42,407 nt of DNA, taken from positions 1 to 42,407 of the forward strand of contig JAGLUZ010000017.1 in NCBI GenBank assembly GCA_023134165.1. Direction: 5' to 3'. The DNA is from Deltaproteobacteria bacterium (lineage in GTDB: Bacteria > Desulfobacterota > GWC2-55-46 > DRQE01). Below, in pieces: positions 3 to 30,825 of this stretch. The notes beneath the pieces are model-generated. The model saw only the letters and a program-made list of their open reading frames with translations. It had not been told where the DNA came from and did not search any database. Both the position numbers and the translations under genes were made by a program. How positions within the stretch are numbered: position 1 is the first letter of the stretch; each line of letters begins with the position of its first letter.

Positions 3-569
3 GCGGACTCTGTTCTGTATAACCTGGAGATTTATGATCCTGAACTCTTTAAGGTTATTTGCCCTGGCAGAGCCGACCTAATTGGTCGCGAGCGTTACTT
101 GGATGCCTTAAAATATGCTGCAAAGATATTTCCAAACGGAACAGTAGCCTCACACCTAATTGTTGGTCTTGAGCCGCCCGGAGCTACTGCTCAGGGAATT
201 GATTTTTTAACTGAACACGGGGTTGTGCCAATTCTTCCAATATATAGACCAAGAGCTGGTAAGGCACTTAGGATAGAGCCACTTGATACGGAGATTATTC
301 TTCCAGTATATAAAAAACTCTATACAGCTATTAAGAGACACGGCATAAATATGAACTGGGTTCGTGATATTAGCTCTGTTACAACGCCGGTTGAGAGCAG
401 GGAACTGGCTGGCGAAAAAAGTTCCTTTACTGACTCACTCGTTGAAAGTTTTTATAAATCCAAGTTTGGATTAAAAACAGCTTGGGGTTTATCTACTCTT
501 AGGAGAAAACTAAGGGTTCGCCCAAAAGATCCGCTTGACGGCCCAAAGCCCTCAAAGAATAAGGAGTAA
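3..569 (+). CDS. C-terminal fragment of a radical-SAM-like enzyme (5' end outside window)
   Basis: Frame 3 is open from base 3 (ADSVLYNLEIYDPELFKVICPGRADLIGRERYLDALKYAAK...) into tracked ORF 99..569. The sequence resembles the barrel half of radical SAM proteins, but no CxxxCxxC motif is inside the window. Confidence 0.4.
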   Translation, partial: ADSVLYNLEIYDPELFKVICPGRADLIGRERYLDALKYAAKIFPNGTVASHLIVGLEPPGATAQGIDFLTEHGVVPILPIYRPRAGKALRIEPLDTEIILPVYKKLYTAIKRHGINMNWVRDISSVTTPVESRELAGEKSSFTDSLVESFYKSKFGLKTAWGLSTLRRKLRVRPKDPLDGPKPSKNKE

Positions 570-617
570 GGTTCTCTTTTTTTTACTGGGTTTTGTTTTT
601 TTGTATGAGGTTATCCT

Positions 618-2057
618 TTGAACTTTGAGATAGATAAAAGACCCATCTGGGTGTTACTAGCAATTAAGGGGCTTAGGCCGTTATTTTTTTTAGCTGTCTT
701 AATTCTTTTTTTACTTATAAATAGCATAAATGTAGATAACTACGAAGGACTCTCAACTGAGGGGCGAACTGCCCTTGCAATCTTTGCAGTTTGCTTACTC
801 CTCTGGGTCTCAAATATTGTACCGCTCGCTATAACTAGCCTCTTTGCAATAGTACTTGTCCCTCTTTTAGGGGTACTCCCTAGGGACGAAGCCTACGCTT
901 TATTTGGCAATGAAGCTGTTTTCTTTATCCTCGGTGCTTTTATCTTGGCTGGGGCGGTAATGCACTCAGGGCTTTCAAATAGAATTGCCCTGGCAATACT
1001 TGAGCGTTTTGGTGGCTCACCAAAGAAACTGCTCTTTAGTATATTTTTTCTCTCTGCGGCACTTTCCTGCGTGATGAGTGAGCATGCAGTGGCGGCAATG
1101 TTGTTTCCAATAGTTTTAGAGATTGCAATGGCTCTTGAACTTAGACCCGGACGCTCTGGGTACGGAAAGTTATTATTTTTATCCCTTGCATGGGGTTGCG
1201 TAATCGGCGGGGTCGCAACATTCCTAGGTGGTGCACGTGTTCCACTTGCCGTTGGAATTCTAACAGAAACAACTGGCAAGACCATTGGTTTTTTTCAGTA
1301 CTCGGTAGCGGTATTTCCGCTTGTTATTGTAATGCTCATTGTTGGGGTTATTTTTCTCTCAAAAACCTTTAAGACTGAGATAATAAGTGTATCAAAGGCT
1401 CACGATGTACTTTCAGAGCGTATACGCTCTATTGGTAAGGTTAGCTACACTGAGTACGCAACAGGGGTTGTCTTAATCCTAACAATTATTATGTGGGTGG
1501 TCTTTGGTACAAGTATCGGGCTTGCCTCAATTGCACTTACCTCTGTGGTTGTACTCTTTGCCCTAAAACTTGTTAGGTGGAAAGACATAGAAGAGTACGT
1601 AAACTGGGGCATCATACTCATGTACGGAGGGGCTATAATCCTTGGTACAGCCCTAGAGAGAAGTGGGGCGGCCTTGTGGATTGCCGAGGCTATTGTTGGA
1701 AGTTGGGTCTTAACCCCGCTCCTAGCTATCGCTTTTTTCTCCCTCTTTACGCTAATCTTCACTGAGGGAATTAGTAATGCCGCTGTTATCGCAATCCTAC
1801 TTCCTGTTGGGATTGGCCTAACAGGGCGTTTTGGGATTGACCCGACTATCATTACCTTTGCAATAGCCGTACCTGCGGGGCTTGCCTTTAGCCTCCCGCT
1901 TGCGACACCTGCAAATGCCATAGCTGTTTCTTCAAATTACGTCTCGGTTATGGATATGGTAAAGGTCGGCGTCTTGATGAGTCTTATTGCTTGGGTGGTC
2001 TTTAATCTCTTGGCTCGTTTTTACTGGCCATTAATTGGTATGGGGATGGGTGGATAG
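618..2057 (+). CDS. DASS/SLC13-family anion permease (probable sulfate transporter by context)
   Basis: 479-aa polytopic membrane protein with the two-fold repeated hydrophobic architecture typical of Na+/sulfate-dicarboxylate symporters. TTG start preceded by GAGG. It sits directly upstream of cysC-cysH-sat. Confidence 0.7.
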   Translation: MNFEIDKRPIWVLLAIKGLRPLFFLAVLILFLLINSINVDNYEGLSTEGRTALAIFAVCLLLWVSNIVPLAITSLFAIVLVPLLGVLPRDEAYALFGNEAVFFILGAFILAGAVMHSGLSNRIALAILERFGGSPKKLLFSIFFLSAALSCVMSEHAVAAMLFPIVLEIAMALELRPGRSGYGKLLFLSLAWGCVIGGVATFLGGARVPLAVGILTETTGKTIGFFQYSVAVFPLVIVMLIVGVIFLSKTFKTEIISVSKAHDVLSERIRSIGKVSYTEYATGVVLILTIIMWVVFGTSIGLASIALTSVVVLFALKLVRWKDIEEYVNWGIILMYGGAIILGTALERSGAALWIAEAIVGSWVLTPLLAIAFFSLFTLIFTEGISNAAVIAILLPVGIGLTGRFGIDPTIITFAIAVPAGLAFSLPLATPANAIAVSSNYVSVMDMVKVGVLMSLIAWVVFNLLARFYWPLIGMGMGG

Positions 2058-2059
2058 TA

Positions 2060-2536
2060 ATGAAGAAAGTAATGCTCATACTCTCAACCTCAAGAACCTC
2101 AACTGAGGCCGTAAACTTTGCCGTAAAAAAAGCAAAGGCCTTGGGCGGAGGTCTACTTGCACTATATATTATTGAGAGTGAGCTAACTGATGAACTCTTT
2201 GACCGCTTCACTGATATTGGTTTTATAGGGGATAAACCCTCAACTGAGCTTACAATGGCCGTGCAAAAGGAATACCGCCAGCGAGGGTACGAAGAGGTTG
2301 GCAGGGTTCAGGTACTAGCCATGGAAGAGGGCATTGACTTTGACGCCCTAACTATAGACGGAGATTTTACAAAAGTTGCTCTTCAGGTAATTGATGAGCG
2401 AGATATCGGCTTAGTTGTTGCGGTAAAGAGAAAGCTTTCGTTTTTAAAGCGGTATTTTTCAAGGTCAGTCGTGGACGAGCTTACCGAGAGTGCCACTTGT
2501 GAGGTAGTTGTCTTTGAAGAAGACGCAGAAGTGTAG
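2060..2536 (+). CDS. universal stress protein (USP)-like domain protein
   Basis: 158 aa with an alternating beta/alpha pattern (MLILSTS..., LLALYIIE..., LVVAVKR...). Starts 2 nt after the permease stop, so probably translationally linked. Confidence 0.55.
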   Translation: MKKVMLILSTSRTSTEAVNFAVKKAKALGGGLLALYIIESELTDELFDRFTDIGFIGDKPSTELTMAVQKEYRQRGYEEVGRVQVLAMEEGIDFDALTIDGDFTKVALQVIDERDIGLVVAVKRKLSFLKRYFSRSVVDELTESATCEVVVFEEDAEV

Positions 2537-2607
2537 TTTTTTTTAAAAAAATGTTTTAAAAATTTTCTTAATACAAGGTAGAAAATCAAAAGGAGAAGTA
2601 AGGTAAA

Positions 2608-3219
2608 ATGGCAGATCAAAAGAGTACTAATATTACTTGGCATCACGGAAAAATTTCAAAGGAAGACAGGGAAAAACTAACCGGACAAAAGGGCGTTACA
2701 ATCTGGTTAACAGGGTTATCTGGCTCTGGTAAATCAACTATCGCTGTTGAGCTTGAGCACGCACTAATGGATAACAAACATCAAGCCTACATCCTAGACG
2801 GTGATAATGTTCGTCACGGACTCAATAAAAACCTTGGCTTTTCACCAGAAGACAGGACTGAGAATATTAGAAGAATCGGTGAGGTCTCAAAGCTATTTAC
2901 TGAGGCAAACTTAATTGCCATCACAGCCTTTATCTCTCCGTACAAAAATGACAGAGACGATGTTCGAGCACTCCTTGGCGAGGGTGAATTTATTGAGGTT
3001 TACGTAAAGTGTTCCCTTGAAGAATGTGAAAAACGTGATACCAAAGGGCTTTACAAAAAAGCCAGAGCAGGCGAGATTCCGGAATTTACTGGAATTTCAG
3101 CACCTTATGAAGAACCAGATAAGGCCGAGATTGTAATTAATACCGATGAGTTAAGTGTTGAAGAGTCCACCCGTGCCATACTTGGGTACTTGGAAGAGAA
3201 AGGTTATATAACCCTCTAA
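2608..3219 (+). CDS. cysC: adenylylsulfate (APS) kinase
   Basis: P-loop [20 protein letters not shown] and ISPY motifs; 203 aa; AAGGAG-like RBS upstream. Confidence 0.95.
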
Positions 3220-3228
3220 GCTGAACTC

Positions 3229-3987
3229 ATGGATAATAAAGATAATAAAAAAAATGTCTCTGAGGTTTCTTTAGATGAGCTAAATGCCATGGACGCAGAG
3301 GCCTTAATTGACTGGGCCTTAACCAACTACGGCGATAGGGTTGCCATTGGTACAAGTTTTCAGCTCTCTGGCTCTGTTATTATTGATATGGCCGCAAAGC
3401 ACCATAAGGAGTTTCGCGTCTTTACAGTTGATACGGGGAGACTTCATAAAGAAACCCACGAAGCAATGGCTGCAACGGAGAAGCGCTACGACATAAAAGT
3501 AGAGCGTAAGGTTCCAAATGCCAAGCGTGTTCACGAGATGGTTGAGCGTTTTGGAGAATTTTTATTCTTTACTGATAAGGCAAAGCAAGAGTACTGCTGT
3601 CAGCTCCGTAAGGTTGAGCCAAATACCGAGGCACTCCAAGACGTAGATGTTTGGATAACCGGCCTTAGGAGGGATCAATCAAAGGCTCGCAGTAGTGCCC
3701 CAAAGGCATTTTTTATGGAGCAGTGGGAGAGGACAATCCTAAAGCTTAGCCCGCTTGTAGAGTGGACAGAGAATGATGTACTAGAGTATATTGATAAAAA
3801 CAATGTTCCGTATAACTCGCTCTTTAATAAAGGTTATGATAGTGTTGGTTGCGTAATATGTTCAACACCACTGGTAATAGGTGAAGAGCCAAGGAGCGGG
3901 CGTTGGAGATGGTTTAATAAGACTGATGATAAGAAGGAATGCGGAATACATCTGCCAGATAATAACGAAAAAAATAATAAAGATTAG
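3229..3987 (+). CDS. cysH: APS/PAPS reductase (thioredoxin-dependent; carries the Fe-S type Cys motifs)
   Basis: PAPS_reduct fold with C-terminal ECGIH catalytic motif, plus a CC pair (EYCCQLRK) and CxxC (GCVIC), the 4-Cys signature of [4Fe-4S] APS reductases. Confidence 0.9.
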
Positions 3988-4010
3988 AACCTAAAAGGAG
4001 GACGGAAACA

Positions 4011-5168
4011 ATGACAGGACTTATAGCACCGCACGGCGGTACACTTATAAAGAGGGCTTTAGAAGGTAAGGAGAGGGAAGAAGCCGCAAAACGAGCCGAA
4101 GGTTTAAAGACACTAAAACTTACTGAGCGTGAGATTAGTGATCTAGAGATGATAGCAATCGGTGGTTTTAGCCCACTAGAAGGTTTTATGTGTAAGGAAG
4201 ATTACCACGGTGTTATGGATACCATGACCCTAAAGAACGGTCTACCTTGGACAATCCCAGTTACACTCTCTACTGATAAAGCAACTGGAGATTCAATTAG
4301 CGTTGGTGAAGAGGTTGCCCTAACTGATGGTAGTGGAAAGGTACTTGGCCTAATTGAAGTGCAAGAAATATTTAACCATGACAAGGAAAAAGAATCTCTT
4401 AAGGTTTACGGAACAACTGAGGACGCTCACCCTGGAGTTGCAAAGGTACTCGAGATGGGAGATACCTTAATTGGTGGTAAGATCTCTGTAATTGAACGCC
4501 CAGAGCATAACGACTTCGGAGACGAGCGACTTGACCCAGAAGAGACTCGCAAGCTCTTTAAGGAAAAGGGCTGGAAGAGAGTCGTTGGTTTTCAAACACG
4601 TAACCCAATTCACAGGGCTCATGAGTATATTCAAAAATGCGCATTAGAGACAGTTGACGGCCTTATGATTCACCCACTTGTTGGTGAGACCAAAGCCGGG
4701 GACATCTCAGCAACAGTTAGGATGGATTGCTACAAAGCCCTCATGGATAATTATTACCCAGCCGATAGAGTAGCCCTTGTTGTCTTCCCAGCGGCTATGC
4801 GTTACGCAGGACCTCGTGAGGCTGTCTTTCACGCACTAATACGCAAGAACTATGGTTGCACACACTTTATCGTTGGAAGAGATCACGCTGGAGTTGGCAA
4901 CTACTACGGAACATTTGATGCCCACTTTATCTTTGATGAGTTTGACCCAGCGGCAATTGATATCTCCCCAATGTTCTTTGACTATACATTCTTCTGTAAG
5001 AAGTGCGGCGGAATGGCTTCATTTAAGAGTTGCCCGCATGACTCAGAGCACCACATCTCACTCTCAGGGACAAAGGTTCGTGAGATGCTACTAAACGGAG
5101 AGAAACCACCAGCTGAGTTCTCAAGACCAGAGGTAGCAGAGATACTTATAAAGGCAATGAGTAAGTAG
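4011..5168 (+). CDS. sat: sulfate adenylyltransferase (homo-oligomeric ATP sulfurylase)
   Basis: [11 protein letters not shown] and GRDHAGVG motifs; 385 aa; GGAGGA RBS. Confidence 0.95.
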
Positions 5169-5212
5169 AAAGAAAGCACGGCATCTTAATGTCTGACTTC
5201 TTGACACTTTTG

Positions 5213-5265
5213 CCGTTATAGTTTATTATTCAAAACTAAGGATAATAGACTATGACGGTTTTTTT
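5213..5265 (+). terminator. intrinsic terminator of the sulfate operon
   Basis: About 18-bp stem (5213-5230 pairs with 5241-5258, three G-U wobbles), 10-nt loop, then T7 (5259-5265). Confidence 0.75.
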
Positions 5266-5337
5266 GTGTTATAGTACTTAAAATCCTTACAAGTAAAATC
5301 TGTTTTTTATTTTTTTGAATATAAAGGAGGTTCATTT

Positions 5338-6123
5338 ATGAGAAGTATAAAAGAATTTAAGGTTTTTCTAATTGCCGTGGTTGCCTTTATTGGCCTAACC
5401 TTTGGTATAAGTTCAACAGCAAATGCACTAGTAGATCTTAAGGTTGAGGGCAGGTACTGGTACTCTACCTTAGAGGCTGATGCCAAGGTAAGTGACGGCT
5501 CTATTATTGGTACTAACATTAATTTCGTAGATGACTTAGGTGTTGACGCAACAAATGGCTTCCCTGAGCTACGTGCAATAATTGGCCTTGGAAGCCACAA
5601 GATTCGTTACAGCTTTATTCAACTTGAGTGGGAAGGTGATGAGACCATCTCTCAGGATATTAATTTTGCTGGCTTCACCTATACTGCTACTGCAAGTGTT
5701 GATACAACCTTTAGCGTAGATATGCATAGCCTTGGTTATGAATATGATATTATTGAGGTAATTGGTAATAAGGTTGGTCTAATCGCCGAGCTAAAATACA
5801 TTGATATGAATGCAAACCTTGAGGCCTCCTCACTAGCTGGGAGTGATCAGAAAGATAGCCTCTTAAAGTTCCCTCTACCAACCCTTGGTGTTGTAGCCCA
5901 AGTAGGTATTCCAATTCTCTTTGTTAATGCAGAGGTAACAGGAATCTCCCTTGGCGAGAAGGCCTATTTTGTAGATGCTGACGCTTCTATTAATTTCATA
6001 CCTCTTCCACTTTTAACGATTAGCGGCGGTTACAGGTTAATTAATATCCATGTTGACTATGATGATAATGTAGGCAATATTAATATCGCAGGACCGTACC
6101 TTGCCTTGCGTTTTGGTTTTTAA
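5338..6123 (+). CDS. outer-membrane beta-barrel protein, unknown function
   Basis: Signal peptide ending SSTANA, alternating amphipathic beta-strand pattern, C-terminal LALRFGF with terminal Phe (OMP beta-signal); AAGGAGG RBS. Confidence 0.6.
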   Translation: MRSIKEFKVFLIAVVAFIGLTFGISSTANALVDLKVEGRYWYSTLEADAKVSDGSIIGTNINFVDDLGVDATNGFPELRAIIGLGSHKIRYSFIQLEWEGDETISQDINFAGFTYTATASVDTTFSVDMHSLGYEYDIIEVIGNKVGLIAELKYIDMNANLEASSLAGSDQKDSLLKFPLPTLGVVAQVGIPILFVNAEVTGISLGEKAYFVDADASINFIPLPLLTISGGYRLINIHVDYDDNVGNINIAGPYLALRFGF

Positions 6124-6140
6124 ATTTTACTAGAGCTTTT

Positions 6141-6165
6141 AGGGCGTACCACATGGGTACGCCCT
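6141..6165 (+). terminator. perfect 10-bp hairpin after the OMP gene
   Basis: AGGGCGTACC-acatg-GGTACGCCCT; the trailing U-tract is weak (gaaagtttctt). Confidence 0.45.
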
Positions 6166-6187
6166 GAAAGTTTCTTAACTTCCCCTG

Positions 6188-7279
6188 ATGCCCTCCCTTA
6201 CTGAAAAAATCCCAAAAGAAAGAGTCCTAATCGTTGAGGTCAACGAAAAAAGTACCTTACTCCTGCGTTCGATGATGGAAGCAGAGGGCTATATAGTTGA
6301 ATGCTCCATGAACGGCATAGAGGCCATGAATATCGTCCCGACCTTTTGCCCAGACCTAATACTCCTGGATATTATGATGCCTGGAATGGACGGTTTTGAG
6401 ACCTGCCAAAGATTAAAGGCTGACGTGCGTACTCGTTATATTCCAGTTGTAATGCTAACAGCAAGGAGTGAGAGTGATGATAAGGTCACTGCCCTTAATG
6501 CCGGAGCTGAAGATTATATTGTAAAGCCATATTCTGTTGCTGAGTTAACTGCAAGGGTTCGCTCTATTCTTGCCATGCGTGCGCTTCAGAAAAAACTAAC
6601 AGAGACAGAAAAGATGGCCGCCCTTGGTGAAATGATAGACGGCATTGCACACGAGATTAGAAACCCCTTGGTTATGATTGGTGGGATGGCAAGGCGACTC
6701 TTTGAGCATGAGAGTGATGATAAACATAAGAGGTATGCTGGGAGGATAATGGAAGGCGTACTCCGAATGGAACACATGATGGAGAGGATTGCTGAGTATA
6801 AGGGTGTGCTTGTCTCTGATTTTACTGCCTCCAATATAAATGACCCAATTGAGGCCGCAGTTGAGGAGGCAAAACTTTATATTGACGGAAAGAGATTAAA
6901 GATAAAGACAGAGCTACTAAAAGAGCCGCCAATTCTTAAACTTGACCCAAAAAATATAAAGTTAGCAATATTTAATATCTTACAAAACGCAATGGAGGCT
7001 GTGGAAGAAGTTGCAGGGGAGATTACCCTTAAGACAGAGCTTCGGGAGCAAAGGGGTAAGGAATACCTTATAATTAAAATAACAGATAATGGTCACGGCA
7101 TTGACGCCGAACTCTTAAGGAATGTCTTTCATCCCTTTCATACGACCAAGACCGCAGGCGGTGGCCTTGGTTTAAATATTGCTTACAGGATTATTGAAGA
7201 TAACGGCGGCACCTTAAGCGTACAGAGTAAGAAGGGGGAGGGGGCAGAGTTTACGATAAACCTTCCAGTTGGGGATTAA
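6188..7279 (+). CDS. soluble hybrid REC-histidine kinase (N-terminal receiver, HisKA, HATPase_c)
   Basis: Receiver motifs LILLDIMMPGMDG and KP; H-box GIAHEIRNPL; N-box and G-boxes (DNGHGI, GGGLGL). No TM or sensor domain. Confidence 0.85.
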   Translation: MPSLTEKIPKERVLIVEVNEKSTLLLRSMMEAEGYIVECSMNGIEAMNIVPTFCPDLILLDIMMPGMDGFETCQRLKADVRTRYIPVVMLTARSESDDKVTALNAGAEDYIVKPYSVAELTARVRSILAMRALQKKLTETEKMAALGEMIDGIAHEIRNPLVMIGGMARRLFEHESDDKHKRYAGRIMEGVLRMEHMMERIAEYKGVLVSDFTASNINDPIEAAVEEAKLYIDGKRLKIKTELLKEPPILKLDPKNIKLAIFNILQNAMEAVEEVAGEITLKTELREQRGKEYLIIKITDNGHGIDAELLRNVFHPFHTTKTAGGGLGLNIAYRIIEDNGGTLSVQSKKGEGAEFTINLPVGD

Positions 7280-9968: not shown

Positions 9969-10610
9969 ATGATTGGAATAAACCCAAAGGGCGGAATACG
10001 CAATAACCTTCCCAATATTCTCTCACTCATCAGAATAGGTGCAACCCCTATTCTGATATTAATGCTCCTTGACCCAGGGAAGGTCTTAAGCATTCTTGCG
10101 ACCATATTGTTTTTAGTCGTTGCACTAACTGACTGGCTAGACGGATACCTTGCCCGGAGGATGGGGCTTGTGACGCGGGTTGGAAAGTTCCTTGACCCGC
10201 TTGCTGATAAGCTACTGATAATATCAGCTCTCATAATGCTAATCTCCTTGGACAGGGCTCCTGCTTGGATGGTCACCCTAATCGTTGCTCGTGAGATAGC
10301 TGTAACAGGGCTTAGGACAATGGCCTTGGAGGCTGGAGTAGTAATCTCAGCGAGTATCGCTGGTAAGACAAAGACTGTTTTTCAGATTGCTGCAGTTGTC
10401 CCGCTTCTAATTCATTACCCCTTCTTTGGTATCGAGTTTCAGTACCTAGGGGAGGCTATTTTGTGGTTGGCCTTTATTTTAACAATCTACTCTGGTGTTG
10501 AGTATTTTATCAAGTTTAATAAACACGAGCAGGAAAAAGGAAGCTCATCGGCTGAACCAGATAGTTCAGAGTTGGGTGACGAGATAGAAGATAATGACAA
10601 CAATGATTAG
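9969..10610 (+). CDS. pgsA: CDP-diacylglycerol--glycerol-3-phosphate 3-phosphatidyltransferase
   Basis: CDP-alcohol phosphatidyltransferase motif DWLDGYLARRMG...GKFLDPLADK; multi-TM; unusual acidic C-terminal tail. Confidence 0.88.
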   Translation: MIGINPKGGIRNNLPNILSLIRIGATPILILMLLDPGKVLSILATILFLVVALTDWLDGYLARRMGLVTRVGKFLDPLADKLLIISALIMLISLDRAPAWMVTLIVAREIAVTGLRTMALEAGVVISASIAGKTKTVFQIAAVVPLLIHYPFFGIEFQYLGEAILWLAFILTIYSGVEYFIKFNKHEQEKGSSSAEPDSSELGDEIEDNDNND

Positions 10611-10641: not shown

Positions 10642-10673
10642 GAGATGTTTTTCACCCTGAAGGAGTCAGTTGA

Positions 10674-12260
10674 ATGAAAAAAATATCTATGAAAGCATTT
10701 ACCCTTGGTCTTTTATTTTTGGTAGCTATTGTCTTTACAGGATGCGTTTCGACAGGAACAATCCATGACGCTGCATTTGCAGGAGATTTAGAAAAAGTCA
10801 AAGTGCATCTTGATAAAGGCGTCGATGTGAATTTAAAGACTACTAAGGGTGAGACACCCTTGGTCATTGCTACGTTTAAGGGAATGCCTCTGGTTGCAAA
10901 GGCACTCATTGATAACGGTGCAGATGTTAATGCAAAAAGCCAGTATGGTGATACCCCATTAACATGGAGCATAACTAAAGGGATGTTTCAGATTACGAAG
11001 TTGCTCATTGAGCGTGGTGCTGATGTGAACACAAAGAATAACAAAGGGACTCCCCCTTTAGTTATTGCTGTCTCTAATAAAAATTATCAGTCTTCGAAGT
11101 TACTTATTGAAAAAGGTGCTGATATAAATGCAAAGACAGTGGATAATGATACACCCTTGATCCTTGCTACGTTTAAGGAGATGCATCTGATTGCAAAAAT
11201 ACTCATAGAGAAGGGCGCAAATGTTAATGCAAAAAATAAGAGTGGTTTTACACCCTTGCTCTTTGCTGGGTCTAAGGGGATGCCGAAGGTCGCGAAGCTG
11301 CTTCTTGAGAGGGGCGCTGATGTTAATGCAAGGAGTAATGATGGCATGACCCCCTTGATGTATGCTACGTCTGAGGGGATGTCACAGACTGCGAAGTTAC
11401 TTATTGAAAACGGCGCTGATGTGAATGCAGAAAATAAATTTGGACAGACGGCCTTATTTTATTCTTTGTTCAAAAAAATGTCTCAGGTGTCAAGATTACT
11501 CATAGAGAAGGGCGCCGATGTGAATGTAAAGTCAATCAATAATGATACCCCCTTACACTTCGCGGTTTCTATGGGGTTGCCTCAGATTACAAAATTACTC
11601 ATAGAGAAGGGTGCTGATTTAAACGTAAAAAATATACATGGACAGACGGCCTTAATGAGTGCAGAAAAATTAGGCAATACTCAGATGATATCTCTCTTAA
11701 AGAAAGAGAGTGCTAAGAAGAGAAGGGTCGAGGTAGCGTTCTTAAAGAAAAAACAACCATGCTCATTAAAAGAGATGGACTGGATTTACAAAAAAGGGAA
11801 GTGTCGAAATAAACTTGCAAATGGCAAGGGCCACGCCGTTCATATTGACGGTAACCTCACCTTTGAGGGGAACTTTAAAAACGGAAAACGTACTAAGGGA
11901 GTTATATTGGCTGGAGCAACCCCCATGTATGACGGCCCTATAGTTAAAGGCAAACCAAATGGTGATGGCATTTGCTTTCATGAGGGTGAACCAGAGAGTT
12001 GTAAGTACTATAAAGGCAAACGGGTTGACGCACTCTTTAAGCAGAGGATAGAACTTACAAAACATAGAATCGAGCAACAAAAGGCCATGGATGAACAAAA
12101 CAGAAAGCTCGATGCCAAACTTAAGAAGATAAAGGCGGCCAACACATACCGTGCGCCAGTGGTAGCAGCCGGAGGCGGTAAAGGTAGTGGAGTAGGCGAC
12201 GCCATAATGGGTAAGGTTTTAGACAAAGGGTTAGACATGCTCTTTGATAAATTGTTTTAA
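10674..12260 (+). CDS. ankyrin-repeat lipoprotein A (about 10 ANK repeats plus 168-aa conserved C-terminal module)
   Basis: Signal peptide with lipobox VFTG-C. 33-aa units TPLxxAxxxGxxxxxKLLIExGADVNxK. C-terminal QPC...NTYRAP...MLFDKLF module at 11754-12257. AAGGAG RBS. Confidence 0.85.
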   Translation: MKKISMKAFTLGLLFLVAIVFTGCVSTGTIHDAAFAGDLEKVKVHLDKGVDVNLKTTKGETPLVIATFKGMPLVAKALIDNGADVNAKSQYGDTPLTWSITKGMFQITKLLIERGADVNTKNNKGTPPLVIAVSNKNYQSSKLLIEKGADINAKTVDNDTPLILATFKEMHLIAKILIEKGANVNAKNKSGFTPLLFAGSKGMPKVAKLLLERGADVNARSNDGMTPLMYATSEGMSQTAKLLIENGADVNAENKFGQTALFYSLFKKMSQVSRLLIEKGADVNVKSINNDTPLHFAVSMGLPQITKLLIEKGADLNVKNIHGQTALMSAEKLGNTQMISLLKKESAKKRRVEVAFLKKKQPCSLKEMDWIYKKGKCRNKLANGKGHAVHIDGNLTFEGNFKNGKRTKGVILAGATPMYDGPIVKGKPNGDGICFHEGEPESCKYYKGKRVDALFKQRIELTKHRIEQQKAMDEQNRKLDAKLKKIKAANTYRAPVVAAGGGKGSGVGDAIMGKVLDKGLDMLFDKLF

Positions 12261-12421
12261 GTGAAAGTTTTAACTTGTTAATTATCGTAGGTAATAACTA
12301 AAAAAAGTAGCGGAAAATTGATTTTATTTTATTCTTCTTGAGATTTTTTACTTTCTTTGAAAGATCACCAAGACTTTCTTCCAATAGGGTTTTTTTAAAG
12401 TTCTATATCCGAGGGAAGGCC

Positions 12422-13390
12422 ATGAGAATATCAATATCAAAATACCTCTTTTTCTTACAGTTCGTCCTCGTAAGTATCTTGTGTGGTTGCCAAAGCACTT
12501 CATTCCACAATGCGATAAAGACTGGAAATCCGGCTGAGATTATCACCTTTCTTGAGCTAGGCACTGATGTGGACGCTACCACAGAGTTTGGTTATACGCC
12601 CTTAACCTACAGCGTAAAACACGGCAACCTGCAAGCCGTAAATTTATTAATTGCTAAGGGAGCAGATGTAAACCTAAAGGACGATTACGGCTTCTCTCCT
12701 TTAATGTATAGTGCCAAGTATGGCTACCTCCAGATTACTGAGGCCTTAATTGTAAGCGGTGCAGATGTAAATATAAAAAATGAATCTGGTTTTACCCCCT
12801 TGCTCTACGTAGCCAAATACGGGTATTTTCAAATATTACAGGTCTTGATTGAGCAGGGTAGTAAGGTAGAAACAACTGACAACTTTGGGTATACACCGCT
12901 GATGGCATCCTCTGAGTATGGTTGTTTTCCTTGCGTTGACTTACTACTAAAGTCTGGGGCAAATGTAGATGCAAGGAATAAACCTGGTTTTACCTCTTTG
13001 ATGTTAGCCTCCCTAAGCGGAAGGGCGCACGTCATAGGGCGGCTCATTCAAGGCGGGGCAATTGTTAATGCAAAGGGCAGGTTTGGTTTTACACCACTTA
13101 CATATGCCGCAATGGGCGGACATACCTTGACTGCCTCGGTTTTACTTAAGTCAGGGGCAGATGTAAATACCAAGAATGATCATTCATATACGCCTTTAAT
13201 GTACGCAGTACTCTTTGCAGGAGATAGAGGGGATACCACTACCATAACGCTACTCCTTAATAGTGGTGCTGATCCAAGGCTTGCGAATAACTCGTGCGTT
13301 ACAGCTAAGGAGATGGCCTACGGCCTTTACAGTGAGAACATCATGAGTGCGATTAATACGGCCTGGAATAGCAAAAAAGCAGACAGATAA
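12422..13390 (+). CDS. ankyrin-repeat lipoprotein B (about 8 ANK repeats, no C-terminal module)
   Basis: ATG at 12422 gives MRISISKYLFFLQFVLVSILCG-C (lipobox) behind GAGGGAAGG. The tracked TTG at 12338 adds a non-signal extension. Ends in a YGLYS...AIN cap. Confidence 0.8.
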   Translation: MRISISKYLFFLQFVLVSILCGCQSTSFHNAIKTGNPAEIITFLELGTDVDATTEFGYTPLTYSVKHGNLQAVNLLIAKGADVNLKDDYGFSPLMYSAKYGYLQITEALIVSGADVNIKNESGFTPLLYVAKYGYFQILQVLIEQGSKVETTDNFGYTPLMASSEYGCFPCVDLLLKSGANVDARNKPGFTSLMLASLSGRAHVIGRLIQGGAIVNAKGRFGFTPLTYAAMGGHTLTASVLLKSGADVNTKNDHSYTPLMYAVLFAGDRGDTTTITLLLNSGADPRLANNSCVTAKEMAYGLYSENIMSAINTAWNSKKADR

Positions 13391-13477
13391 TTTTTTTAAA
13401 AAATTCTTAAGGTTTTAATCTTTAAAGATTTAATATTTACAAAATAAAAAAACAAAAAAAACGGAGGAAGTAGAAAA

Positions 13478-14554
13478 ATGTTTGTGAAAAAATCATTAGG
13501 ACTCTTTACAATTTTATTAATGACATTATTTTTTTCAGGTTGCACCACAATAAGTACTACAGATAATGCCGCAATGCATGGTACCAGAACTCAATTAATT
13601 AATTTATCAAATAGTGGGGTTAATCTTAAGCAAAAAAATGCTAGTGGTTATAGCCCTCTTGCATATGCCGCAATGGGAGGCAATTCAGCAACAGCAAAGT
13701 ACTTAATAGAAATCGGTGCTGACGTAAATGTTAAAAACAATGCCGGGTACACTCCTTTGATGTTTGCCGCCCTCTATGCCTCAAAAACTGGGCAAACAGG
13801 TATCATCAATACACTTCTTGATAATGGTGCAGATCCAAATTTAAGAAATAATTCAGGTAAGACAGCCGCTACCTTATCATATGGTCTTTATAGCTATACC
13901 GTAGTTAATGCAATAAATGCCGCCGCACAAAGAAAGGCACTCGCCAAGCAAAGAAAGATAGCTGAAGATAAAAGAAAGGTAGAGGCTGAAAGGCAAAGGG
14001 TTTTGGAGCAGAAGAAAAAAGATGAACTCTTGGCATTAATAAAGAAACAACCTTGTGTTCTAAAAGACATGAGCTGGATTTATATTAGCGGTGGTTGCGG
14101 AAAAAAATACGCTAATGGTGAGGGGAGTGCAATAAATATCTCACAAAATACAAGTTTTGATGGTAAATTTAAATACGGCAAGATGATCTCAGGAATTACC
14201 TACTCTGGATTAAAGAGAAATAATCGCACCTTAATCTTTGATGGTGCGCTTAGGAACGGCACACCAAATGGTGAGGGGATGTGTTTTTATAAGGGTGCGC
14301 CAGAAAAATGTGAGTACTATATGGGTAGTAGAGTAGACTTTCTCCATAAGCAAAGAGCTGAGCTTGAGTCTCAGAGGGCGGCCATGAATGAACAAAACAG
14401 AAAGATGGACGCCAAACTTAAAGAGATGCAAAAGGTCAACACATACCGCGCACCTACGCCAGTAAGCCGTGGTGGTGGCTCTGCCGCAGGTGACAAGATA
14501 ATGAATAAGGTTATTGATAAGGGTATTGGAATGCTCTTTGATCAGTTATTTTAA
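13478..14554 (+). CDS. ankyrin-repeat lipoprotein C (about 3 ANK repeats, coiled coil, 168-aa C-terminal module)
   Basis: Lipobox FFSG-C; GGAGGA RBS. The ANK units are homologous to the last units of gene B. Module at 14048-14551. Confidence 0.85.
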   Translation: MFVKKSLGLFTILLMTLFFSGCTTISTTDNAAMHGTRTQLINLSNSGVNLKQKNASGYSPLAYAAMGGNSATAKYLIEIGADVNVKNNAGYTPLMFAALYASKTGQTGIINTLLDNGADPNLRNNSGKTAATLSYGLYSYTVVNAINAAAQRKALAKQRKIAEDKRKVEAERQRVLEQKKKDELLALIKKQPCVLKDMSWIYISGGCGKKYANGEGSAINISQNTSFDGKFKYGKMISGITYSGLKRNNRTLIFDGALRNGTPNGEGMCFYKGAPEKCEYYMGSRVDFLHKQRAELESQRAAMNEQNRKMDAKLKEMQKVNTYRAPTPVSRGGGSAAGDKIMNKVIDKGIGMLFDQLF

Positions 14555-14578
14555 GTAAACAAAACACCGGAGAAAGAT

Positions 14579-16303
14579 ATGAAAAAAATATTTCCTAAGG
14601 TGGCCTTTCTTTTATTGCCGCTCATTGCTCTTGCTTTTGGAGGTTGCCAAACTATGTCACCGCTTCATAGTGCGGCAACCCAAAAGAACCTGACTCAGAT
14701 GCATGCCCTGCTTGACGGTGGTGCTGATATTAACAAAAAAGACTCCAGGGGAAATACCCCTTTGAGTTACGTCTCTATGCAAGATAATACAAGTGCCGCA
14801 ACAGTACTTATAAAGCGCGGGGCTGATGTTAATATTGGTAATAATACAAATATGACCCCTCTTATGTGGGCTACATTTAAATCAAATATAGACCTAACTA
14901 GGTTACTAATTGAAAATGGTGCTGACGTTAATGCGGCCGATAAAAATAAGTACTCAGCTCTTATGTGGACTGTTATGGGTGCAGAGCAGTCTGCAATTGG
15001 TCAAAGAGTTAGGAGTTCCCCAAAAAATGATGCTGCTAATAGAATTAAGGTACTAGAACTTTTAATTGAGAACGGAGCGAAGATTGAGGGCGCGCACCCC
15101 AATTTAAAACCCCAGAAGTATGCAAAAATGACAAAGAGAATGGATATATCCAATTTCTTAGAGGGTGCGGCACAGAGACAAAAGGTGATGAAGAATATGT
15201 TTCCTATTCATTTAGCTGCTTACAATGGGGACATTTCAAAGCTTAAGACCTTGCTCCGCAAAGGCAAGCACGTTGACTATCCTGATACAACAGGTAATAC
15301 CCCTTTAATTTGGGCAGTATCAGCGGGTCACTTAAAGACGGCTGAGTTTCTTATTAAAAACGGGGCTAAGGTAAACCACTTCGGCAAGCATAATCAGACA
15401 GCCCTAAAGACTGCGGCTCTTTATGGTCACCTGAAGATAATTGAGATGCTCGTAGCCACCAAAGGTGCAGATCTTGAATTTAAAAATGAGGCCAGTGAGA
15501 CTGCTCTCTTTGTAGCGGCAAAGGGCGGTTTTCTGGAGGTTATCTCTGTCCTCGTAAAGAAGGGTGCAAAGGTAAACACAATAAACAAAGACGGGGATAC
15601 GCCACTTATGTTTGTCGCTAGAAAGGGTGATAAGGATACCGTCATTCACCTTGCAAAGAGTGGTGCTAGTCTTATGGGTGCTAATAACAAAGGGCTTAGT
15701 GCGCTTAATATGGCAAAGTTAAATAACCATAATTCGATTGCAGAGTACCTAGATAATAGTATAAAAACCGTTGAGATTGCGGCCTTAAAGCAGAAGCAAC
15801 CCTGCATACTAAAGGATCAGAGTTGGATTTACCTAAGCGGAGATTGCCTTAAAGAACTAGCTAATGGTGAGGGCAGTGCCATAAATATCTCAGAGAATAT
15901 CAGCTATGATGGGCAATTTAAAGATGGCAATATGACTACTGGAATATCTTACTCTGGGATAAATAAAGGTAACCGCATATTTGTCTTTGACGGTCCGCTT
16001 AGGAACGGGACTCCAAATGGTGAGGGGATGTGTTTTTATAAGGGTGCGCCAGAAAAATGTGAGTACTATATGGGTGCAAGGGTGGACTTTCTTCATAAGC
16101 AAAGAGCTGAACTTGAGTCTCAGCGTCTTGCTCTTGAGGAACAAAATAGAAAGATGGACGCCAAACTTAAAGAGATACAAAAGGCCAACACGTACCGCGC
16201 TCCAACGCCAGCAAGTAGTAGTGGTGGAAGTGCAGGAGGTAGTAAGATAATGGATAAGGTTATTAATAAGGGTATTGGTATGCTCTTTGATCAGTTATTT
16301 TAG
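14579..16303 (+). CDS. ankyrin-repeat lipoprotein D (about 9-10 ANK repeats in two blocks plus 168-aa C-terminal module)
   Basis: Lipobox AFGG-C. Starts 24 nt after gene C. Module at 15797-16300, about 78 percent identical to that of gene C by hand alignment. Confidence 0.85.
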   Translation: MKKIFPKVAFLLLPLIALAFGGCQTMSPLHSAATQKNLTQMHALLDGGADINKKDSRGNTPLSYVSMQDNTSAATVLIKRGADVNIGNNTNMTPLMWATFKSNIDLTRLLIENGADVNAADKNKYSALMWTVMGAEQSAIGQRVRSSPKNDAANRIKVLELLIENGAKIEGAHPNLKPQKYAKMTKRMDISNFLEGAAQRQKVMKNMFPIHLAAYNGDISKLKTLLRKGKHVDYPDTTGNTPLIWAVSAGHLKTAEFLIKNGAKVNHFGKHNQTALKTAALYGHLKIIEMLVATKGADLEFKNEASETALFVAAKGGFLEVISVLVKKGAKVNTINKDGDTPLMFVARKGDKDTVIHLAKSGASLMGANNKGLSALNMAKLNNHNSIAEYLDNSIKTVEIAALKQKQPCILKDQSWIYLSGDCLKELANGEGSAINISENISYDGQFKDGNMTTGISYSGINKGNRIFVFDGPLRNGTPNGEGMCFYKGAPEKCEYYMGARVDFLHKQRAELESQRLALEEQNRKMDAKLKEIQKANTYRAPTPASSSGGSAGGSKIMDKVINKGIGMLFDQLF

Positions 16304-16374: not shown

Positions 16375-16451
16375 GCCCTCGTAGCTCAGCAGGATAGAGC
16401 ATCGGATTCCTAATCCGTGTGTCGGACGTTCGAGTCGTCTCGAGGGCGCCA
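16375..16451 (+). tRNA. tRNA-Arg (anticodon CCT), CCA encoded
   Basis: Hand-folded cloverleaf. Acceptor GCCCTCG/CGAGGGC. D arm GCTC-agcaggata-GAGC. Anticodon loop TTCCTAA. T arm GGACG-TTCGAGT-CGTCT. Discriminator G plus CCA. One T-T mismatch at the base of the anticodon stem. Confidence 0.9.
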
Positions 16452-16570: not shown

Positions 16571-16598
16571 TTGACTAATCTTCATGAAATGATATAAT
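16571..16598 (+). promoter_or_regulatory. near-consensus sigma70 promoter
   Basis: TTGACT (16571-16576), 16-nt spacer, TATAAT (16593-16598). Confidence 0.5.
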
Positions 16599-16741: not shown

Positions 16742-16769
16742 ATTTAATAAACCTTTAGGGGGAAAACTA

Positions 16770-17343: not shown

Positions 17344-17371
17344 GTGTCGCATAATGGATATTATGTTAAAT
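17344..17371 (+). other. dif: dif chromosome-dimer resolution site (XerC arm, 6-bp spacer, XerD arm)
   Basis: GTGTCGCATAA TGGATA TTATGTTAAAT versus E. coli dif GGTGCGCATAA TGTATA TTATGTTAAAT: 24/28 identical, XerD arm 11/11. Located in the convergent gap where gene orientation flips from + to -. Confidence 0.8.
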
Positions 17372-17412: not shown

Positions 17413-18339
17413 CTATCCCCTTGGGTGAAATTTGTTATGAAGTTTTCGAAGTCTTTCTTTTGTGACGTGAGTATAAATCTGCGTTGCAGAAATATCAGCG
17501 TGACCAAGCATCTCTTGAACTGCTCGAAGGTCTGCTCCTCGCTCTAAAAGATGGGTTGCAAAACTGTGACGAAGAATGTGCGGCTTAACCTTGGCTCTAT
17601 TAATTTTGGCTTTGACCGCATATTTTTTTAGAATATGCCAAAAATTTTGCCTAGTCATGGACTTACCCCTTGAGGTTAAAAAAAGCTCCATTGAGTTAAC
17701 TGAACCTTGAAACGCCTCCCTGCTCTCCTCCATGTACCTGACAACCCAAACCATAGCCTCCTCTCCAAAAGGCACTATACGCTCTTTTGAGCCTTTACCG
17801 AGTGTTTTTAAGCAACCCGTCTGAAGATTCAAATCATTTAATTTAAGCGAGGTTAGCTCTGAAACCCTAAGGCCCGTAGCATACATTACCTCAATCATGG
17901 CTCTGTCACGCAGACCATTTCTGGTGGAAACATCTGGAGCGTAAATTAAATCCAAGACCTCAGCGGTGCTTAAAAATTCAGGGAGACGTTTCTCAAGTTT
18001 TGGAATCTCAATTAGGGCAGTCGGCAGAGTCGATATAAGATCTCTCTTTAAGAGGCTTCGATAAAATCCTCTAACAACAACAAGGTGTCTTGCCATGGTA
18101 CGCGTGCTGAGGCTGGTTTTTTTCAGGAAAGCGAGAAATTTTCTAATCTCATCTGGTGTGACACTGATTAGGGTTGAGCCTATTTGCGTGATAAATTTAT
18201 TAAATTTATTTAGATCTCGCTCGTAGGATTCGCAGGTATTCTTTGAAAGCCCTTTCTCAGTGATAATAGAATTAATGTACTCTACTACGAGTTGAGCCCT
18301 ATCAATTTGTTTTTTCATTCTCTTCAGCTTCACCTTCAA
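17413..18339 (-). CDS. xerD: tyrosine recombinase XerD
   Basis: Strong similarity to E. coli XerD blocks (LRDRAMIEVMYATGLRVSEL, MTRQNFWHILKKYA, HILRHSFATHLLERGADLRAVQEMLGHADISATQIYTHV, ERLRKLHNKFHPRG). Overlaps the glnD 3' end by 38 nt. Confidence 0.9.
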   Translation of the reverse strand: MKVKLKRMKKQIDRAQLVVEYINSIITEKGLSKNTCESYERDLNKFNKFITQIGSTLISVTPDEIRKFLAFLKKTSLSTRTMARHLVVVRGFYRSLLKRDLISTLPTALIEIPKLEKRLPEFLSTAEVLDLIYAPDVSTRNGLRDRAMIEVMYATGLRVSELTSLKLNDLNLQTGCLKTLGKGSKERIVPFGEEAMVWVVRYMEESREAFQGSVNSMELFLTSRGKSMTRQNFWHILKKYAVKAKINRAKVKPHILRHSFATHLLERGADLRAVQEMLGHADISATQIYTHVTKERLRKLHNKFHPRG

Positions 18340-29028: not shown

Positions 29029-30825
29029 TTAAATATCCGGTGTCTTAATCTTTGGCCCTTTAAAGACAGTAATCTTATCTAGCAAAAGCTTTATCGTATC
29101 AGGTGCGCTAATTTTATTTTCCCCGTCAAGGTTAAATATTGCTTCGTCCTCATTGATACTTAGAATCCTACTATCATCAACACTTGGAGACTCACCCTTA
29201 TGCACGTAAACAACTGGAACTTTTCTTCGCCTTAAGACCTCGTCCCTTAGATGTGCAACATCTTCAAGGGCACCTCGCTTGAGATCCTTCAAACCGAGAG
29301 CTCGACTGCTACCCTCATTAGAGGTTGGAAGATTTCCATCTTCAGAGATTAAGACTGAACCACCAACATTCATCTCTGCCCCGGCTTCGCTCCACTCATC
29401 ACTCTCATCAGATTTTTTATCACCTACACCCCACTCTGGTTTTTCACCTTCTACTTCAACACCATCATCCTCTTGGTTGCCACCACCTTCAGGGTCTTGC
29501 TCCTCTTCATGAATGTCATCCAGAGTGAGCTCAAGGGCGGCTCCTGTGGCCTGATCCCAGAGTAAGACAATCCCTATTAGGTTTGAGGAAAGTGCCGTTA
29601 TAAGTGGCGTTAACTCAACTGCCGTTGGGACGTAGAAAATTGCAATATCCATATCCCCGTAAAGCGAGAGCCGACACATCTCGCCGAGTTGTGCAAGCCC
29701 ACTATTTTTAACTGTAAAATCCGGTAACTCCGAACATTCATGGATAAAATTCTCAATCAAACTATCTTTTGTAGAGACCAAGAATATCTTTCCTGCATCG
29801 ATATTACGCATGTCGTGCCAATTATCAAGTGCACTCTCTTTTACTTTTATGGCCTCAATTGCAGTTATAAAATCAGCGTAGTTTATCTCGCTTTGGACAT
29901 CCTCTGTTACCTCTAAAATCTTTTTATCAATAAGCCCCCTGATTGCCTCGTAGGTATCAAGGTCTGTTGAATGACACCTGTCAACAAGCTCACCAACTCG
30001 CGGGTGGTAATCTAGGAGTGTTATTATTTCATAAATAAGAGGTTTTAGCCCTTTGGGTAGGGAGGACTGTTCAACCGTTAGCTTTAGATGCTTATCCACA
30101 TGTGGAAAACGCCTCTTGCCTTTTTCAAACTCATCCAGCTGACGCATACCCTCCATAAGGAGATTCCCGGTTGGAGTATCAATTTTTTGAGGAATAGTTA
30201 CCGTACTTTGAGTAAATTCAAAGTCTCCGTCTGGCCAAGTGAATATTCTATAGAGTGCTTTTTCACTCTCAATCTCACCTATAAAGGCATTAAAGACTTG
30301 TCCGCCTTTCATAACAATTGTTGCTTTGTCCTCACCTGAGATAATATTAAGTTTACCTTCTTTTTGATTAAAGTGGAGCATCTGTAGAATATCAACAAGG
30401 GAGACCTGAGAGAGTTGCCCTGATATTTCTTTCTTTGACTCTATTGTCTCACCACCACCAGAGAATAAAAGAGAGCGACGGATATTTGCATAAAGCTCCT
30501 CCAAGTTAAAGGGGCGAGTTAAGAACCTGTCGGCCTCAACCTTAAAGCCGTAAATGTCCTTGGCAGTCTCGGAGAAAAGAATAAAAGGAATCTTTTCAGT
30601 TGAGGCGTTTCCGCGAAGTGCTTTAAGGAGGGCTTGCCCGTCAGTGCCATCAAGCTCAAGGTCAGCTAGAATCATTGATGGAATTTTCTCAAGCGAGAGC
30701 TCCATGGCCTCTGTGCCGTCTTTTGCAATAAGCGTCTTTAACCCTCTGGTTGATAAAAACTTTGATATCTTTTCAGTATCATCAGGGTCGTTAAAGGCTA
30801 GTACTATTAATTGTTCTTCCTGCAT
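29029..30825 (-). CDS. REC - DUF4388/PATAN - degenerate NTPase-like domain protein with acidic insert
   Basis: Receiver (acidic pocket NDPDD, phospho-Asp ILADLELDG, but TRPF instead of KP). DUF4388 pattern LSQVSLVDILQMLHFNQKEGKLNI...GGQVFNA...ALYRIFTWPDGDFEF. The C-terminal half is described in the findings. Confidence 0.65.
   Translation of the reverse strand: MQEEQLIVLAFNDPDDTEKISKFLSTRGLKTLIAKDGTEAMELSLEKIPSMILADLELDGTDGQALLKALRGNASTEKIPFILFSETAKDIYGFKVEADRFLTRPFNLEELYANIRRSLLFSGGGETIESKKEISGQLSQVSLVDILQMLHFNQKEGKLNIISGEDKATIVMKGGQVFNAFIGEIESEKALYRIFTWPDGDFEFTQSTVTIPQKIDTPTGNLLMEGMRQLDEFEKGKRRFPHVDKHLKLTVEQSSLPKGLKPLIYEIITLLDYHPRVGELVDRCHSTDLDTYEAIRGLIDKKILEVTEDVQSEINYADFITAIEAIKVKESALDNWHDMRNIDAGKIFLVSTKDSLIENFIHECSELPDFTVKNSGLAQLGEMCRLSLYGDMDIAIFYVPTAVELTPLITALSSNLIGIVLLWDQATGAALELTLDDIHEEEQDPEGGGNQEDDGVEVEGEKPEWGVGDKKSDESDEWSEAGAEMNVGGSVLISEDGNLPTSNEGSSRALGLKDLKRGALEDVAHLRDEVLRRRKVPVVYVHKGESPSVDDSRILSINEDEAIFNLDGENKISAPDTIKLLLDKITVFKGPKIKTPDI

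Follow-up and report, generated by a model that had tools for sequence, protein, structure and literature searches.

The DNA analyzed here is a 42,407-nt stretch from the metagenome-assembled genome of an uncultured Deltaproteobacteria bacterium (assembly GCA_023134165.1, contig JAGLUZ010000017.1), hereafter referred to as the window. Between pgsA and a tRNA-Arg gene it carries a tandem array of four ankyrin-repeat (ANK) genes whose products are predicted lipoproteins, three of them ending in the same C-terminal module (Table 1). The array had been singled out in a first-pass annotation made from the sequence, and the open reading frame (ORF) coordinates agreed with that description: the four genes lie on the same strand, separated by intergenic gaps of 161, 87 and 24 bp, and the array is located between pgsA and tRNA-Arg at about 1 kb from dif (~1.04 kb from position 16303 to the dif-like site). 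The same four gene calls were obtained on an independent assembly, GCA_030673165.1, which is uninformative on array variation because it is 99.97% identical to the window across 21.7 kb.

A Shine-Dalgarno-like GGAG/GAGG motif was present 6-10 nt 5' of all four start codons. The mechanical ORF of gene 2 begins at an alternative TTG codon at 12338, which would place the lipobox cysteine at residue 51; the ATG at 12422 is to be preferred, because a ribosome-binding site is present, the lipobox cysteine falls at residue 23 and the position agrees with the public gene call. Four antisense ORFs lie within the ankyrin genes (10652-10972, 11087-11347, 12829-13047 and 15427-15645, all on the minus strand). 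Their translations are repetitive (e.g. ...SAPLS...); they are mirror-frame artefacts of the repeats and do not merit annotation as genes.

Table 1. Features of the ankyrin lipoprotein array and its flanks in the 42,407-nt window.
Feature	Coordinates	Strand	Details
Gene 1, predicted ankyrin-repeat lipoprotein, 528 aa	10674-12260	+	Lipobox Cys24 codon 10743-10745; ANK residues ~28-350, then C-terminal module
Gene 2, predicted ankyrin-repeat lipoprotein, 322 aa from ATG	12422-13390	+	Lipobox Cys23 codon 12488-12490; without module
Gene 3, predicted ankyrin-repeat lipoprotein, 358 aa	13478-14554	+	Lipobox Cys22 codon 13541-13543; ANK, then module
Gene 4, predicted ankyrin-repeat lipoprotein, 574 aa	14579-16303	+	Lipobox Cys23 codon 14645-14647; two ANK blocks, then module
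C-terminal module of gene 1, residues ~335-528	11676-12257	+	Module hidden Markov model (HMM), E 6.7e-88
C-terminal module of gene 3, residues ~153-358	13934-14551	+	Module HMM, E 4.5e-90
C-terminal module of gene 4, residues ~371-574	15689-16300	+	Module HMM; 188-aa part 15737-16300 modelled
pgsA (CDP-OH_P_transf)	9969-10610	+	Left boundary; last gene of the nadB-SLT-pgsA block
tRNA-Arg(CCT)	16375-16451	+	Right boundary
Sigma-70-like promoter match, 11/12, extended -10 TG	16571-16598		Upstream of riboswitch
Cyclic di-GMP (c-di-GMP)-I riboswitch, Rfam RF01051	16621-16715	+	54.4 bits vs gathering score 35; E 4.7e-8
ORF, 160 aa	16770-17252	+	TPR-like look; without Pfam match
dif-like site GTGTCGCATAATGGATATTATGTTAAAT	17344-17371	+	24-nt core 17348-17371 unique in window; 0 matches expected by chance
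XerC/D-type recombinase gene	17413-18339	-	~40 bp from dif-like site

Lipoproteins were called with a PROSITE PS51257-style rule, that is, a charged n-region, a hydrophobic h-region and a lipobox of the form [LVI..][ASTG..][GAS]-C with the cysteine at position 15-35. The four array proteins all satisfied this rule (lipoboxes VFTGC, ILCGC, FFSGC and AFGGC in genes 1 to 4), each N-terminus having Lys or Arg within the first seven residues and a hydrophobic core whose Kyte-Doolittle maximum over 12 aa was 2.4-2.9, in agreement with the signal peptide and lipobox initially reported for each of them. Position +2 after the putatively lipid-bearing cysteine is occupied by V, Q, T and Q, and thus in no case by Asp, as had also been read. 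The outer-membrane assignment made on that ground follows the E. coli rule; +2 sorting is established only for Enterobacteria.

The Pfam check proposed along with the first description placed all four proteins above threshold, with Ank_2/Ank E-values from 6.5e-15 to 2.4e-70 and Ank_2 scores of 233.6, 164.1, 55.9 and 211.8 bits for genes 1 to 4 (Pfam cut-off 27.3). When the sequences were laid out in a 33-residue register, ~10, ~9, ~4 and ~10-11 repeats were counted, caps included; the earlier estimates of 10, 8, 3 and 9-10 were close enough. The repeats of gene 4 form two blocks (~4 and ~6 repeats) with a degenerate stretch between them, and the last two repeats of gene 2 are similar to those of gene 3. 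Legionella Dot/Icm ankyrin effector families in NCBIfam (AnkY, AnkH, AnkX and others; NF0430xx) gave at best 203.8 bits (AnkY) against a cut-off of 600, the others scoring lower; these matches are explained by generic repeats. Anti-phage ANK families in PADLOC (MzaA, PDC-M72A and 'Ankyrin') were likewise rejected, since the matches spanned only the repeat regions of the profiles (MzaA reached 159 of the 800 bits required), and no partner genes of these systems were present in the window. The absence of a characterised family behind the array was thus upheld, as every NCBIfam and PADLOC match was generic to ANK repeats and fell far short of its family cut-off.

The element that sets three of the four proteins apart is their tail. 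As had been noticed from the sequence, genes 1, 3 and 4 end in a common non-ANK module of ~190 residues, with four invariant cysteines and 52-76% amino-acid identity among the paralogs, compared with 27-46% for the ANK parts. The module ends in LFDKLF in gene 1 and LFDQLF in gene 3. No Pfam or NCBIfam model covers it, PADLOC also gave nothing, and the Pfam MORN model (PF02493) remained below threshold on single module sequences (E 0.48). Conservation was assessed in a trimmed 23-sequence alignment of the family, in which the four cysteines, spaced C-x13-C and C-x8-C, were invariant together with a Trp, a framework of hairpin Gly residues, the blocks PEECKYYKGKRVD and KQR, and the terminal FDxLF-COOH. 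The conserved paired cysteines fit an oxidising, extracytoplasmic location.

The profile of this alignment matched the MORN1 protein of T. brucei in the PDB (E 7.6e-8). An AlphaFold 2 (AF2) model of the 188-aa part of gene 4, built with the 23 sequences, had a mean predicted local distance difference test (pLDDT) score of 85, exceeding 90 for residues 1-150, and contained a helix (2-19), seven strands (31-111), a helix of ~34 residues (118-151), a disordered Gly/Ser/Pro linker (152-170) and a last helix (171-187). In the predicted order, a helix leads into a MORN-type beta sheet with the four cysteines, and then comes a long helix that is joined by a disordered linker to the amphipathic terminal helix. 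The top Foldseek matches of the model were all MORN proteins, with probability 1.0 and E-values of at least 0.0096: radial-spoke proteins, MORN1, MORN3, junctophilins (ranked under the radial-spoke proteins and MORN1) and the N-domain of SET7/9. An earlier AF2 model based on eight sequences (pLDDT 59, insignificant Foldseek matches) was superseded by this one. Judged by profile and predicted structure, the module core appears to be of the MORN-type fold class; this is the outcome of the remote-homology check (profile search and Foldseek on an AF2 model) that the first-pass annotation had suggested.

The terminal helix was modelled at a pLDDT of ~50, so its packing onto the domain is not confident. 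It is amphipathic (hydrophobic moment, muH, 0.34-0.40; mean hydrophobicity, H, ~0.3), with conserved hydrophobic residues at positions 0, -1, -4, -5 and -8 from the C-terminus and an invariant Asp at -3, and a helix with such a hydrophobic stripe and invariant Asp fits an intermolecular contact. By inspection, FDxLF was rejected as an outer-membrane protein beta-signal or a DegS-activating YxF peptide: its hydrophobic residues do not alternate, and position -2 is polar.

An exhaustive search with the module HMM over 1.84 billion representatives recovered 1,106 at E <= 1e-3, of which 234 reached E <= 1e-10 and 90 reached E <= 1e-30. A word-indexed search queried with the modules of genes 1, 3 and 4 had returned only 6 proteins and suggested extreme rarity; the HMM matches overturned that view, and the low count proved to be an artefact of sensitivity. 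The module was located at the extreme C-terminus in nearly all strong matches. Among the 90 best representatives, at least 51 passed the strict lipobox rule, many others being near-canonical, and 70 ended in F[D/N]xLF. The Pfam domain preceding the module in the best 97 was ANK in 47, PDZ in three, MORN in three, DUF2846 in two and TonB_C in one, and many N-terminal regions could not be assigned. The plan of the family is therefore a lipid anchor, a variable binder and a constant tail, with ANK plus module as the commonest form. An architecture peculiar to the present genome was not what the search revealed, the module having 1,106 representatives and about half being ANK fusions.

Tandem pairs of ANK-module lipoproteins were also found in two metagenome loci (L099 and L100). 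Two highly fragmented whole-genome shotgun projects, MAAA01 and MAAB01, each contain at least four or five different module paralogs on separate contigs (L101, L106, L108 and L116 in MAAA01; L088, from assembly GCA_002163355.1, L098, L107, L110 and L118 in MAAB01), which suggests large module-paralog families in some genomes. The sole named homologue belongs to a Bermanella metagenome-assembled genome (MAG).

The genes surrounding family members were inspected at ~12 other loci. These neighbourhoods were heterogeneous and mostly of housekeeping type: thiI-tusA with a methyl-accepting chemotaxis protein gene, a restriction-modification/umuDC island, guaA with tadA, dnaA-dnaN-gyrB-gyrA, a T2SSF gene with a tRNA synthetase gene, and redox genes in the Bermanella MAG. 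No recurring partner gene was found beside the family members, apart from one redox set (genes for a thioredoxin-like protein, for subunit 3 of gluconate-2-dehydrogenase, for a GMC oxidoreductase and for aconitase B) in five contigs of one metagenome series (L100, L102, L105, L113 and L119), which look closely related to one another. In these contigs the ANK-module gene or genes (in L100, at 243-3795 and 3873-6678) are followed by a gene for a periplasmic thioredoxin-like protein and then by those for gluconate-2-dehydrogenase subunit 3 and the GMC oxidoreductase. FAD/GMC oxidoreductases also occur near family members in L082/L094 and L121, inconsistently across loci. Confined as it is to five related contigs, the set was judged a probable coincidence and rejected as a conserved partner; the redox neighbours could be there by chance, or they could reflect a weak redox link with a bearing on the module's four conserved cysteines.

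The distribution of the array was examined through pgsA. The nearest relatives obtained had PgsA identities of 51-63%, a GTDB scan with PgsA yielding none above 63%, and they keep the nadB-SLT-pgsA block (L002-L009). All of the pgsA loci examined (n = 80/80, all from distant relatives) were negative for ANK or module genes within 10 kb downstream of pgsA, and the only other assembly with the array was the 99.97% identical one. The synteny check proposed at the outset thus found the array absent, not conserved, in every relative examined, all of them distant, indicating that it is lineage-specific at the pgsA-tRNA-Arg position, at the coarse resolution of such relatives. The array has the same GC content and third-position GC content (GC3) as the neighbouring genes. 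Between the paralogs, the module showed dN/dS values of 0.21-0.25 and dS values of 0.7-1.8; it is under purifying selection, and the duplications are old, because synonymous divergence is that high. The term 'inserted', used in the first description, is supported by the absence of the array after pgsA in the 80 loci, but the comparison is coarse, the GC and GC3 are host-like and the paralogs are old. No mobility gene was found near the array other than that of the dif-associated Xer recombinase, and the module had no matches in plasmid, phage and IMG/VR collections; a mobile-element origin was rejected on these collections and on the lack of compositional deviation. The array is less singular than it first appeared: a family of modular lipoproteins, uncharacterised and sparsely distributed, has here undergone a lineage-specific tandem expansion.

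Three envelope ANK proteins are relevant for comparison. Tli of Enterobacter cloacae is a six-repeat periplasmic ankyrin immunity lipoprotein that cups a type VI secretion system (T6SS) lipase, the phospholipase Tle6, as seen in the Tle-Tli crystal structure (PMC11470151; 10.1101/2023.03.28.534661). It resembles the array proteins in combining a lipoprotein signal peptide with an all-ankyrin solenoid, and differs from them in being encoded beside its effector in a T6SS locus and in lacking the MORN/coiled-coil/FDxLF module. The array, in turn, comprises four paralogs of 4-11 repeats with no linked effector or T6SS, and its likeness to Tli was judged at the generic ANK level; the top PDB sequence matches of gene 2 were ankyrins and designed ankyrin repeat proteins (DARPins), Tli not being among the top 60. 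AnkB of Pseudomonas aeruginosa (PMC12754779, ref 56), a periplasmic ANK protein, supports the catalase KatB and, unlike the array genes, is co-transcribed with katB; the scan of the window genes revealed no catalase gene. RARP-1 of Rickettsia parkeri, also a periplasmic ANK protein that is not secreted (10.1101/2022.02.23.481736), differs by its large disordered region. Both are alike to the array proteins as Sec-exported ANK proteins that are retained in the periplasm and have envelope or periplasmic functions, and for neither of them has a tandem lipoprotein array or the tail module been reported. ANK proteins are thus not necessarily host effectors, because AnkB and RARP-1 stay in the periplasm. 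With Tli, AnkB and RARP-1 known, the view that envelope-resident ANK proteins are without precedent could not be maintained, and the novel element of the locus is the undescribed MORN/coiled-coil/FDxLF tail module.

The module resembles MORN proteins (Trypanosoma and Toxoplasma MORN1, RSP1/RSP10 and junctophilins) in its predicted beta-hairpin core, by profile and fold, and junctophilins likewise join their MORN repeats to a long helix and are anchored in the membrane at the C-terminus. The eukaryotic proteins differ in being cytoplasmic and without disulfides, and the bacterial module in having only ~3 or 4 repeats, four invariant cysteines and the FDxLF-COOH end. The Legionella Dot/Icm effectors have ankyrin repeats as well; they lack a lipobox, and no type IV secretion system (T4SS) was found in the window.

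We see about an even chance that the four proteins are lipid-anchored, periplasm-facing, protein-binding lipoproteins that arose by old tandem duplication, the tail serving as a common docking or assembly device. They would be exported by Sec and processed at the lipobox by signal peptidase II, and the lipid-modified N-terminal cysteine would anchor them in the envelope facing the periplasm. The ANK solenoid, of 4-11 repeats and different in each paralog, would bind a protein ligand, and in genes 1, 3 and 4 the module, a disulfide-stabilised MORN-type sheet, would supply a docking or assembly function common to them, most likely by binding an envelope partner or self-associating through the terminal FDxLF helix. 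Different binder domains would thereby be gathered at a single envelope site. Old tandem duplication in a lineage-specific slot between pgsA and tRNA-Arg would have given rise to the array, the ANK parts diverging while purifying selection held the module. The putative lipidation, periplasmic location, disulfides, binding role and tail docking are suggested by the lipoboxes and the invariant cysteines, by the class of fold, by the statistics on domain architecture and by the pattern of selection. A broader proposal, which we hold only tentatively and regard as rather doubtful, is that the module marks a widespread and hitherto undescribed class of envelope lipoproteins in which interchangeable binders (ankyrin, PDZ, MORN or TonB_C) are brought to one common receptor or membrane site by junctophilin-like tethering or docking, the array being an expansion that recruits several clients.

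Several observations weigh against this docking interpretation. The lipidation and localisation of the four proteins are predicted from a rule-based scan, and surface exposure may apply instead of periplasmic retention. Gene 2 is without the module, so that not all members of the array need the tail. Gene context offers no support for a docking partner, because the neighbourhoods of the family are heterogeneous and of housekeeping type, and most family members are metagenome sequences without taxonomic names.

The main functional rival to a binding role is that the array encodes orphan immunity proteins, Tli-like periplasmic ankyrin lipoproteins that would neutralise periplasm-acting toxins of competitors (e.g. 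Tle6-type lipases), with the paralogs widening the range. ANK immunity genes are linked to some deltaproteobacterial CdiA-lipases (10.1101/2023.03.28.534661), and the lineage specificity of the array, its position near a tRNA gene and dif, and the fast divergence of its ANK parts relative to the tail would all suit such a function. However, no gene for a lipase, VgrG, PAAR, Hcp, Rhs, CdiA or T6SS component was found in the 42-kb window or beside family members at the ~12 loci, a strongly conserved C-terminal module with an invariant end motif plays no part in known immunity proteins, and fusions of this module to PDZ, MORN and TonB_C domains occur as well, so we consider immunity unlikely. The tail could alternatively act as a junctophilin-like membrane tether, with the N-terminal lipid in one membrane, the amphipathic C-terminal helix on the other or the same membrane, and the MORN sheet and long helix as a spacer. 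The parallel with junctophilin extends over the MORN sheet, the long helix, the flexible region and a C-terminal membrane-seeking segment, junctophilins appear among the Foldseek and profile matches, and a muH of 0.34-0.40 is that of an amphipathic helix; but with its invariant Asp and several Lys and Asp residues the terminal helix is too polar for insertion and resembles a specific docking peptide, and the junctophilin matches rank below those of the radial-spoke proteins and MORN1, which leaves the analogy speculative and a tether improbable.

The host- or partner-interaction system that the first-pass annotation had suggested by analogy with secreted ANK effectors would correspond to surface-exposed or released effectors or adhesins acting on a host, partner or prey. 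T4SS effectors are the best-known bacterial ANK proteins, partial matches to NCBIfam Ank effector families were obtained, paralog expansion and lineage specificity are compatible with such a role, and some bacteria display surface lipoproteins. These family matches are nevertheless far below cut-off and generic (e.g. 204 against 600 bits for AnkY), the lipobox implies membrane anchoring and not export by a T4SS or a type III secretion system, and no secretion system was found among the window ORFs. The genomic context (ATP-citrate lyase, sulfate assimilation) is that of a free-living autotroph, the only named homologue comes from the Bermanella MAG, and RARP-1, formerly presumed secreted, turned out to be periplasmic. 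With no secretion system, no effector-type partner and a lipobox export signal, an interaction system of this kind was not supported, and we rate it as very unlikely.

Bacterial ankyrin repeats are usually read as tools of host manipulation, and this locus adds to the evidence for their use inside the envelope, here in an apparently free-living autotroph. The module occurs in about a thousand representative proteins from metagenomes, and a family definition for it would provide many 'hypothetical lipoproteins' with an annotation; the FDxLF peptide would be a concrete handle for finding the partner of the module. Should the module prove to be a docking device, it would represent a new organising principle for periplasmic proteins.

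The surroundings of the array were also characterised. The cumulative GC-skew maximum lies at ~16-17 kb, and the window spans the replication terminus, because this maximum, the dif-like site and the Xer gene coincide. The window also encodes ATP-citrate lyase and a monomeric isocitrate dehydrogenase, together with BamB and the enzymes of assimilatory sulfate reduction, a gene content that fits a free-living diderm autotroph with an outer membrane (BamB).

The c-di-GMP-I riboswitch is placed between tRNA-Arg and the 160-aa ORF, and is followed by a GC-rich hairpin and then a T-run ending near 16750. This ORF is probably under c-di-GMP control, since the riboswitch, the promoter match and the hairpin with its T-run lie upstream of it. 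A homologue with 30% identity was found in the relative GWC2_42_11 (L003, 12273-12758, minus strand), ~3 kb from pgsA and on the opposite strand; a riboswitch was looked for near this homologue and none was detected. Two further ORFs of the window, 5338-6123 (plus strand, 261 aa) and 30825-31817 (minus strand, 330 aa), had no Pfam match, and the former is kept beside a histidine kinase gene and nadB in another relative (L004), with 44% identity.

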